Position numbers and translations under genes: made by a program. Positions 41,025 to 41,590 of a stretch of DNA of 64,000 nt are shown piece after piece (the first letter of the stretch is position 1; each line of letters begins with the position of its first letter). This stretch comes from Nitrospirota bacterium (GTDB taxonomy: Bacteria; Nitrospirota; Nitrospiria; Nitrospirales; Nitrospiraceae), in NCBI GenBank assembly GCA_963701855.1, contig CAVPBK010000011.1, forward strand, positions 192,001 through 256,000. The letters run 5' to 3'. The notes beneath the pieces were generated by a model, which searched no databases, was not told where the DNA came from, and saw nothing but the letters and a program-made list of their open reading frames with translations.

Positions 41025-41042
41025 ATGAACCCAAGGTTGAGG

Positions 41043-41411
41043 TTAAGGTTGAGTAGTCCTGCGAAGTGAGCGAATCAATGCGTTGAGTTCTTTCCAGATT
41101 TCGTCGGTCAGCTTCATTGCAAGAATGCATTCACTCTGTTTGAAATACGATACCTTCTGTCCATAGATAAGATGGTTCTTCGTTTCAGCTAGTGATCCGC
41201 GAGAGGCGTAGTAGAAATTCAGTTTGTCCTTTGTGTGTTGACGACCAAATCCTTCAGCAAGATTTCCGGGAACCGAGAGGGCAGATCGTCTAACCTGCGA
41301 AGTCAACCCGTAATCTTCCTTTCTCGGAAGACTCTCGGTTAATGAAAATACCTTCTGGGCCAATTCCATGGCCTTTTGCCAAACCGGCATATCCTCGAAG
41401 GAACTAAACAC
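41043..41411 (-). CDS. Four-helix-bundle protein (23S rRNA intervening-sequence protein family)
   Basis: FEDMPVWQKAM, LPRKEDYGLTSQVRRSALSVPGNLAEG, SRGSLAET; 122 aa. Confidence 0.9.
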   Translation of the reverse strand: MFSSFEDMPVWQKAMELAQKVFSLTESLPRKEDYGLTSQVRRSALSVPGNLAEGFGRQHTKDKLNFYYASRGSLAETKNHLIYGQKVSYFKQSECILAMKLTDEIWKELNALIRSLRRTTQP

Positions 41412-41590
41412 CCGTTGGCCTCAACCTTAGCGGAAGGCTTAGGTCTAGGTTAAGACCGAGGGAAAGGTTGAGGTCGAGATTAAGGTCAAGCACGGAAGCC
41501 ATGAGCTGTCTGATCTCCCTCAATCCTCTCAACCTTCTCCAACCTCCTAACCTCCGCTTCTAACCTTCAAGCCTCCAACCTCAGCCTTTC
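41412..41590. repeat. AGGYTR hexamer/heptamer repeat hairpins between gmd and the four-helix-bundle gene
   Basis: AGGCTT AGGTCT AGGTTA..AGGTTG AGGTCG AGATTA AGGTCA and CAACCT-type runs; the reverse complement of 41464-41506 is homologous to 47227-47268. Confidence 0.8.

Follow-up and report, generated by a model that had tools for sequence, protein, structure and literature searches.

A small gene within inverted, subfamily-specific hexamer arrays: a probably portable unit of operon junctions with a predicted repeat-binding protein

Between gmd and an fcl-like gene of a Nitrospirota bacterium lies a short four-helix-bundle gene bracketed by inverted repeats of a hexamer family. Is this a gene that happens to sit among repeats, an insert that is cut from the transcript, a host regulator beside its own binding sites, or a cassette of gene and repeats that moves as one? 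To our knowledge, no function has been assigned to the protein family since its discovery in rRNA intervening sequences. Here we consider a stretch of 64,000 nucleotides (the window) that holds the locus, together with the rest of the genome, related genomes and further members of the gene family. The reading that we favour, on balance, is that of a small gene in inverted, subfamily-specific hexamer arrays, forming a unit that relocates and encoding a protein predicted to bind its own repeats.

The neighbouring genes fit the assignments of the initial annotation, whose coordinates are all correct: gmd is recognized by TIGR01472, and the fcl-like epimerase has NF047922 as its top profile match (313 bits, under the cut-off of 500). 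The positions of the open reading frames likewise agree with a GAGG motif in the upstream arm, a GTG start 7 nt further on and a stop codon (TAA at 41045-41043) within the downstream repeats. On the mRNA, the gmd stop codon falls in an arm of mixed units (41590-41519), followed by a loop, a complementary hexamer strand (41481-41434), the GAGG arm (41430-41417), the gene and the downstream arm (41053-41033), which ends 8 nt before an fcl start without a Shine-Dalgarno motif of its own. The hairpin module upstream of the gene is missing in the sister allele L054 and doubled in L039 and L085. The heptamers of the distal arm resemble the arms of the type B cassettes of relatives described below, from which we infer that the arm may contain a remnant of type B. 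Searches against Rfam matched nothing in window positions 36000-50000 (E up to 1) and none of 20 cassette loci at the gathering score.

Table 1 Features of the gmd-fcl cassette and of gene-less hairpins in the window.
Feature	Position	Strand	Remarks
gmd, upstream host gene	41567..42589	-	TIGR01472 match over cut-off
fcl-like epimerase/reductase, downstream host gene	40062..41024	-	adjoins gmd directly in empty alleles
Four-helix-bundle gene, 122 aa, GTG start at 41411, 'type A' subfamily	41043..41411	-	TIGR02436/PF05635
Downstream (3') arm on mRNA	41033..41053	-	3-4 hexamer units; encodes last codons and stop codon
Gene-proximal upstream arm with GAGG ribosome-binding motif	41417..41430	-	can pair with downstream arm or 41464-41473
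Upstream gene-less hairpin, 3' strand and loop	41434..41518	-	optional module
Distal 5' arm	41519..41590	-	hexamer and heptamer (AGGTTGG-type) units mixed; contains gmd stop codon
Gene-less hairpin between gspF-like and gspG-like (type II secretion-like) ORFs	47088..47269	+	ORFs named from translations; shares loop letters with upstream hairpin
Gene-less hairpin module	38563..38748	+	146-nt copy at gmd junction of relative G015
Gene-less hexamer hairpin beside ~124-nt repeat motif	38913..38987
Gene-less hexamer hairpin inside ~124-nt repeat with terminal inverted repeats	37988..38051		near-identical copies 23945-24007, 27659-27721

The initial annotation described the gene as bracketed by a perfect 10-bp inverted pair, AAGGTTGAGG (41033-41042) and CCTCAACCTT (41419-41428). 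The pair is present as described, but the specific stem is incidental. Perfect 10-bp inverted pairs occur in 28 of 70 control tiles (800 nt each, from the window and free of hexamer arrays), coding regions here also hold a chance pair of this length, and a third copy of the cassette's 10-mer lies at 41464-41473, so the pair alone is not beyond chance. Across nine alleles, the ribosome-binding arm has perfect matches of at most 10, 6, 5, 9, 4, 7, 7, 5 and 9 bp, and the predicted pairing probability of the 10-bp stem is 0.18. The downstream arm folds at -33.1 kcal/mol with the distal arm (41519-41590) versus -20.8 with the proximal arm; the proximal pairing in this terminal stem spans 10-12 bp and is unconserved, and the distal arm could form a longer though imperfect duplex. 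Because the 10-bp stem is neither conserved nor well paired and the downstream arm prefers the distal arm, the element is better drawn as 41033-41590 with nested arms. In silico loss of the distal arm lets the 3' strand of the hairpin fold over the ribosome-binding arm.

The arrays themselves are another matter. Hexamer runs of at least three units number 47 in the genome and 0 in 1.5 Mb of Markov-simulated sequence and are thus far beyond chance. All six TIGR02436-family genes of the genome, four of them broken, are flanked on inspection by inverted short-repeat arms, each with its own 6-, 7- or 9-base unit. For the family at large, 283 loci yielded 225 full-length genes with flanks, of which 144 at <80% identity were retained, with 147 neighbour genes as controls; arms were scored as at least three tandem copies of one 6-9-base unit upstream and its reverse complement downstream. 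Inverted arms flank 63 of the 144 family genes but 3 of the 147 neighbours; swapped partners give 0 of 150, and direct instead of inverted copies give 13 of 144. When two copies suffice, these counts become 111, 12, 16 and 41, respectively. The sample is enriched for the type A subfamily, whose members have three-copy arms in 36 of 53 cases, compared with 27 of 91 for the other genes. Among 121 further, held-out genes, 41 have arms at three copies and 82 at two, versus 2 and 4 of 100 swapped controls. The proposal that repeats are enriched around homologues, compared with other genes, is therefore borne out in both sets. No arms are detectable even at two copies in 33 of the 144 genes and 39 of the 121 held-out genes (a quarter to a third), and the window's own gene has an arm score of merely 2.

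Both neighbours point the same way as the family gene in 119 of 139 cases, versus 81 of 147 controls. In the subfamily, the first unit typically begins no more than about 10 nt from the upstream stop codon, and the last unit ends 10-15 nt short of the next ATG. A Shine-Dalgarno motif precedes the downstream gene in 9 of 48 cases and in 37 of 147 controls, no real difference. On one Fibrobacterota contig, three subfamily genes (L118, L119 and L121) lie within ~11 kb, with long pyrimidine-rich unit arrays upstream.

The gmd-fcl junction offers a direct view of how the cassette behaves. There are 70 gmd matches in 63 of 85 genomes of the genus; we examined 49 junctions, all with a Gmd at least 89% identical to that of the window (two come from one genome and two were classed from contig ends). 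Of these, 32 are empty, 12 with gmd and fcl abutting and 20 with a 7-32-nt spacer, nine carry a type A cassette and one is of unknown type. Four hold a type B cassette at the same junction, with a 36%-identical family gene and heptamer arms. The remaining three are decayed, two of type A with arms kept around a gene remnant and one a type B remnant. The nine type A alleles are 88-100% identical, one with an internal stop codon. The presence/absence polymorphism that a mobile cassette led the initial annotation to look for here thus exists, as empty, filled, replaced and decayed alleles. The empty allele also occurs in a DNA contig from an environmental run, one of four runs whose contigs were compared, joining 41015 to 41593. 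No target-site duplication is seen by eye between filled and empty alleles; those empty alleles that have a short spacer may depart from the state before insertion. In the relative G015 (99% Gmd identity), the junction holds a 146-nt module 97% identical to window positions 38563-38708, in opposite orientation to the operon, which indicates that hairpin modules are shuffled between sites.

The distribution of type A does not follow the host genes. On the gmd tree its 9 rows require 8 changes, and on the fcl tree 8 rows require 7; shuffled labels give equal numbers, although such counts cannot separate gain from loss. The allele L054 branches from within a group of abutting alleles, at starred support. 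The cassette genes of L066 and L076 differ at 3 of 366 nt, against a dS of 0.19 in gmd and fcl. The fcl of L066 is nearest to that of L075, an empty allele, with 11 differences in 690 nt, apart from its first ~28 nt: the left break lies in a hexamer at the gmd stop codon, and the flanks resume the match to L075 ~28 nt into fcl. Mean dS is 0.41 for the cassette gene versus 0.84 for fcl and 0.60 for gmd, the latter when restricted to its 5' part, which shrinks the gap; these genes also differ in GC3, and the test for conflict between trees is of marginal significance (p-AU 0.037). Across alleles, the gene has a dN/dS of 0.11, indicating purifying selection. Scattered occurrence on the host trees, short exchange tracts and dN/dS near 0.11 all argue for a mobile unit. 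We are confident that the cassette relocates. That gene and repeat arms behave as one unit, as first proposed, is supported by the enrichment of arms, the junction alleles and the part-deleted derivatives described below. The cassette is likely gained, lost and replaced at operon junctions by short-tract recombination at its arms.

Polysaccharide loci often recombine anyway, and patchiness could be produced by whole-locus recombination if short repeats simply pile up in variable surface-sugar loci around an accessory gene, with no unit involved. The mosaic structure of gmd across the genus fits this account (L038-L086: the 5' 555 nt are 85-93% alike between clades, the 3' part 60-79%), as do the commonness of perfect 10-bp repeats and the upstream neighbours of the family genes, which fall into 25 Pfam families among 39 with hits (47 scanned) and about half of which are nucleotide-sugar or polysaccharide genes. 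Yet the subfamily hexamer also occurs beside housekeeping neighbours (YchF, AIRS and ketoacyl-synthase genes), neighbours at the same loci lack arms, swapped partners show none, and the exchange tracts are short. We regard this explanation as highly improbable: the arm counts, the held-out set and the exchange tracts of L066 largely refute it.

The repeat unit goes with the protein subfamily. A period-6 unit flanks 47 of 53 genes at ≥49% identity, and the type A clade (55 rows, SH 99 in FastTree) has the RAGGTT hexamer or a near variant under 16 phylum labels. Two members at 58% identity (L148 and L164) have switched from hexamer to heptamer and form a natural pair for specificity. The heptamer units of 65 representatives have an A-G-T core in common (score 191.5 versus a shuffled maximum of 169.9). 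The two arms have a near-identical base profile, and in 30 simple cassettes an arm pairs with its cognate only slightly better than with an arm swapped in from another member of the subfamily (p 0.057, driven by three variant-unit loci). The arms stay close to the consensus without being matched to one another, as would be expected of arrays of binding sites more than of a tuned stem. The conservation of the unit could also reflect shared descent without protein binding.

These observations bear on a rival in which the cassette is an mRNA intervening sequence: the stem formed by the arms would be cut by a double-strand nuclease such as RNase III, removing the ribosome-binding site together with the insert, with the protein as passenger or helper. 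There is a precedent in Coxiella, where, according to the part of PMC4990558 accessible to us, an element carries tandem heptamers in a 28-bp stem that RNase III cuts in vitro, removing the Shine-Dalgarno sequence. Arm polarity here is fixed, with 28 hairpin-forming hexamer pairs, purine-rich arm first, versus 0 of opposite polarity and 23 versus 0 in a 9-mer family, and the arm duplexes have energies of -17 to -75 kcal/mol. The real order of units pairs better than a shuffled order in 50 of 63 cases, in a comparison biased by the movement of degenerate edge units into the middle of the control. Against a cut stem stands the absence of any preference for pairing on the mRNA strand (34 versus 29 cassettes; 7 of 18 hairpins), with a G-U bias that is borderline (p 0.052 and 0.16), as does the near-equivalence of cognate and swapped arms. 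The 10-bp stem at this locus is short and unconserved, and if a stem were all that mattered, the unit would be free to drift, whereas it is conserved under the 16 phylum labels. We consider an intervening sequence unlikely as the whole explanation, although by analogy RNase III processing could hold alongside a portable cassette.

Besides the cassettes, the genome contains about 50 gene-less hexamer hairpins. Within 50 kb of the gene there are eight, versus 1.14 expected, a clustering that may reflect merely an accessory region. By a crude gene call, 32 of 36 are intergenic, and those between convergent and divergent genes are at about background frequency. In or beside a separate repeat family of ~124 nt are 21 of the 50, compared with a background of 49 in 2000. 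This second family has terminal inverted repeats (108 paired ends at ≤2 mismatches, genome-wide; window positions 37949-38100 and 832-960), and in a few copies the usual core is replaced by hexamer, heptamer or 9-mer hairpins of the cassette-arm kinds. Two identical hairpin-bearing copies (23945-24063 and 27659-27777) lie 3.7 kb apart inside a polysaccharide cluster.

The homology of the upstream hairpin to gene-less copies elsewhere, proposed at the outset, holds for the copy at 47040-47290, over ~128 nt and including non-repeat loop letters (score 84); for 38550-38760 it is weak and due mainly to common units (scores 54 and 53). At 38750-38821 lies a 24-codon start of a UDP-GlcNAc 2-epimerase-like gene (named from its translation) that is cut short at the hairpin module, and the matching gene start is found at 15775 of L087, in relative G015. 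The hairpin marks a rearrangement breakpoint. A truncated, heptamer-armed four-helix-bundle gene (G000:C5:275117-275420) has the gene-less form of a different cassette at its break: the insert of ~50 nt matches both arms of the cassette at C5:239211, so that one cassette type is nested in another. The idea that empty hairpins are derivatives of the cassette therefore stands in part, as gene-less or part-deleted derivatives are found. Cognate arms of empty hairpins pair better than swapped arms in just 11 of 36 cases, which we read as an artefact of copies in both orientations, as a swapped partner can be the complement of the arm itself; the result shows merely that left and right arms are not homogenised.

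The other proposal of the initial annotation, that the hairpins form a set of regulatory binding sites, leads to a second rival, a host regulator that controls its own translation and the hairpin-marked operons. The protein would then be ring-shaped and RNA-binding, like TRAP. Genomes of the genus with the gene are richer in hexamer triples (median 63 in 10 genomes, 2 of them with a broken gene, versus 9 in 75 without it; p 0.0014, with kin not independent), the hairpins are mostly intergenic, the gene is under purifying selection, and the predicted cover of the ribosome-binding arm on loss of the distal arm would suit autoregulation. But 9 of the 75 gene-less genomes hold at least 40 hexamer triples, and in five hairpin-rich genomes, three of them 99% complete, no DNA match to the gene was found. 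This suggests that empties outlive the gene or spread as passengers and argues against a regulon, as do the hairpins that ride with the other repeat. At the gmd-fcl junction, a 36%-identical gene with a different unit substitutes for the type A cassette, neighbours are functionally unrelated, turnover is high, and hairpins between convergent or divergent genes show no excess. We judge a host regulator improbable.

The protein is a clear member of its family, scoring 114 bits against TIGR02436 (cut-off 24) and 115 bits against PF05635 (cut-off 33.8), the latter being its sole Pfam match, and close relatives carry the names Nitrospira or Nitrospirota. Its structure model (pLDDT 92) superposes on Xcc0516 (2GSC; TM 0.88, 35% identity), BT_0352 (2RLD; TM 0.79) and the Avd protein (4DWL; TM 0.77, 15% identity). 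The family motif R-x3-S-x3-N-x2-E, as given in the available text of PMC3936711, corresponds here to R42, S46, N50 and E53; with Q39 and E76, these residues are conserved at 92-100% in 265 proteins. The 2GSC entry contains five chains and its protein is called a pentamer in the part of PMC4990558 that could be consulted, from which the cassette protein is likely to be pentameric as well. Family genes are very common: they occur in 27 of 41 relatives, in 30 of 41 Bacteroidota genomes drawn and in 36 of 81 in another phylum draw. The gene has no match in 50,697 phage records or in viral contigs, and 43 plasmid records match, all at <60%. A GxxExxY partner is absent from the genome.

By analogy to Avd, the protein probably binds its own repeat units. 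Binding is less certain than relocation. About a quarter to a third of the genes have no arms even at two copies, many copies are broken (four of six here) and no code from residue to base emerged. Among 36 representatives, no alignment column beat the null for any base; among 65, one did (M15, z 5.5, null maximum 4.5), but it tracks clades. An amino-acid-to-base code was thus not found, and the sixth base of the unit varies among four close Geobacter-type proteins.

We propose that a promoterless cassette rides on the host transcript, its 5' arm at the upstream stop codon and its 3' arm reaching to the next start, which would keep its cost to the operon low. Binding together with arm pairing would control the gene's own ribosome-binding site, and may shield the ends or offer them to the recombination enzymes of the host. 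Gene-less hairpins would be mostly deletion products of the arms or recombinants that later spread as passengers. The unit would be held constant because the protein reads it, with one unit per intersubunit crevice, as Avd does with flipped-out bases. In Avd, all five subunits contact one RNA stem-loop, with flipped-out bases in intersubunit crevices, according to the accessible part of 10.1101/2023.10.23.563531.

Whether the protein also promotes the spread of its cassette is more doubtful, although conceivable. A bolder version, which we advance as a long shot, holds that these cassettes are minimal mobile elements consisting of a ring-shaped protein together with the RNA or single-stranded DNA that carries its repeat arms. 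As a pentamer, the protein would clamp the arrays and either recruit a host reverse transcriptase or recombinase or carry out strand exchange through the invariant Q39/R42/S46/N50/E53/E76 face; the element would home into stop-start junctions with the exchange of tens of bases, and would be the ancestor of the Avd of diversity-generating retroelements (DGRs) and the source of ORF-bearing rRNA intervening sequences and of the paired 6-9-base repeat families of many bacterial genomes. Should the protein prove to recognize a programmable tandem unit, or to mobilize DNA with no transposase, this would be a new kind of element. The cassette layout names a specific candidate ligand for each subfamily, its own repeat unit, and makes function testable by binding with a swap control. 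The gmd-fcl locus supplies a natural swap series (empty, type A, type B and decayed) with short exchange tracts.

How does the cassette relate to known systems? Several assignments were considered and rejected. It does not belong to the 23S rRNA intervening sequences by location, lying between gmd and fcl and having no Rfam match. Nor is it part of a DGR, as its protein falls below the cut-off of the Avd profile (23.9 bits on NF033474, cut-off 80) and lacks an adjacent reverse transcriptase: PF00078 matches lie on contigs C9 and C14 and none on the cassette contig C11. The enclosed protein is not a Y1 transposase, which excludes a RAYT system, and no hexamer arrays were found near the reverse transcriptase and Y1 transposase (Y1_Tnp) genes elsewhere in the genome. 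For an insertion sequence or MITE, no encoded or cognate transposase was found, the trans partners covered being Y1 transposases and reverse transcriptases.

In the open full-text literature, a corpus from which most subscription journals are absent, we found no paper that connects these genes with inverted short-repeat arms other than in rRNA; supplements, including those of PMC2700814 and PMC2996986, could bear on novelty. Within the text available, PMC3936711 reports 18 such genes in cas loci and does not mention arms, PMC10053308 describes the homology of the family with Avd, PMC3543383 describes multicopy intergenic repeats, and 10.1101/2024.02.27.582315 reports 23S_rRNA_IVP ORFs in rRNA inserts of CPR bacteria.

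The closest parallel is the ORF-bearing 23S rRNA intervening sequence, such as that encoding Coxiella S23p (PMC4990558, in the part consulted), which has a gene of the same family and complementary ends with tandem repeats. Both have a ribosome-binding motif inside the stem, a patchy distribution and signs of decay. In contrast, the cassette lies between protein-coding genes, its arms are arrays of degenerate units without a conserved perfect stem, and its gene is under purifying selection. It is a real and widespread, apparently undescribed variant of the ORF-bearing intervening sequence that occupies mRNA operons.

REP/REPIN systems resemble it in layout: a RAYT gene is flanked by its own inverted repeats, gene-less doublets are dispersed, and several families coexist in one genome. 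Here, too, the gene sits between inverted repeats and 50 gene-less hexamer hairpins of fixed polarity are dispersed, but the protein is not an HUH (Y1) transposase and the units are tandem 6-9-mers, not single palindromes. Avd shares the fold and is, in the available text of 10.1101/2023.10.23.563531, a pentamer that binds an RNA stem-loop beside its own gene. Inverted arms flank none of four scored DGR avd genes (a fifth lacks a flank). Upstream of one avd gene (L285, ~1440-1490) are imperfect 7-8-base repeats with CTGA that resemble a single arm and have no inverted partner downstream.

Finally, Geobacter metallireducens has paired inverted sites of 7-, 8- and 9-base units, with 3-5 tandem units per site on opposite strands, at variable distance and in many copies (PMC2700814, in the part available), and the accessible text on G. 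bemidjiensis describes multicopy paired short repeats of 6-42 nt in intergenic regions (PMC2996986). Unlike our cassettes, these are described as putative global-regulator sites, and the text at hand makes no link to a four-helix-bundle gene. The cassette layout also ties together rRNA intervening sequences, paired short-repeat 'regulator' sites and the accessory protein of DGRs.
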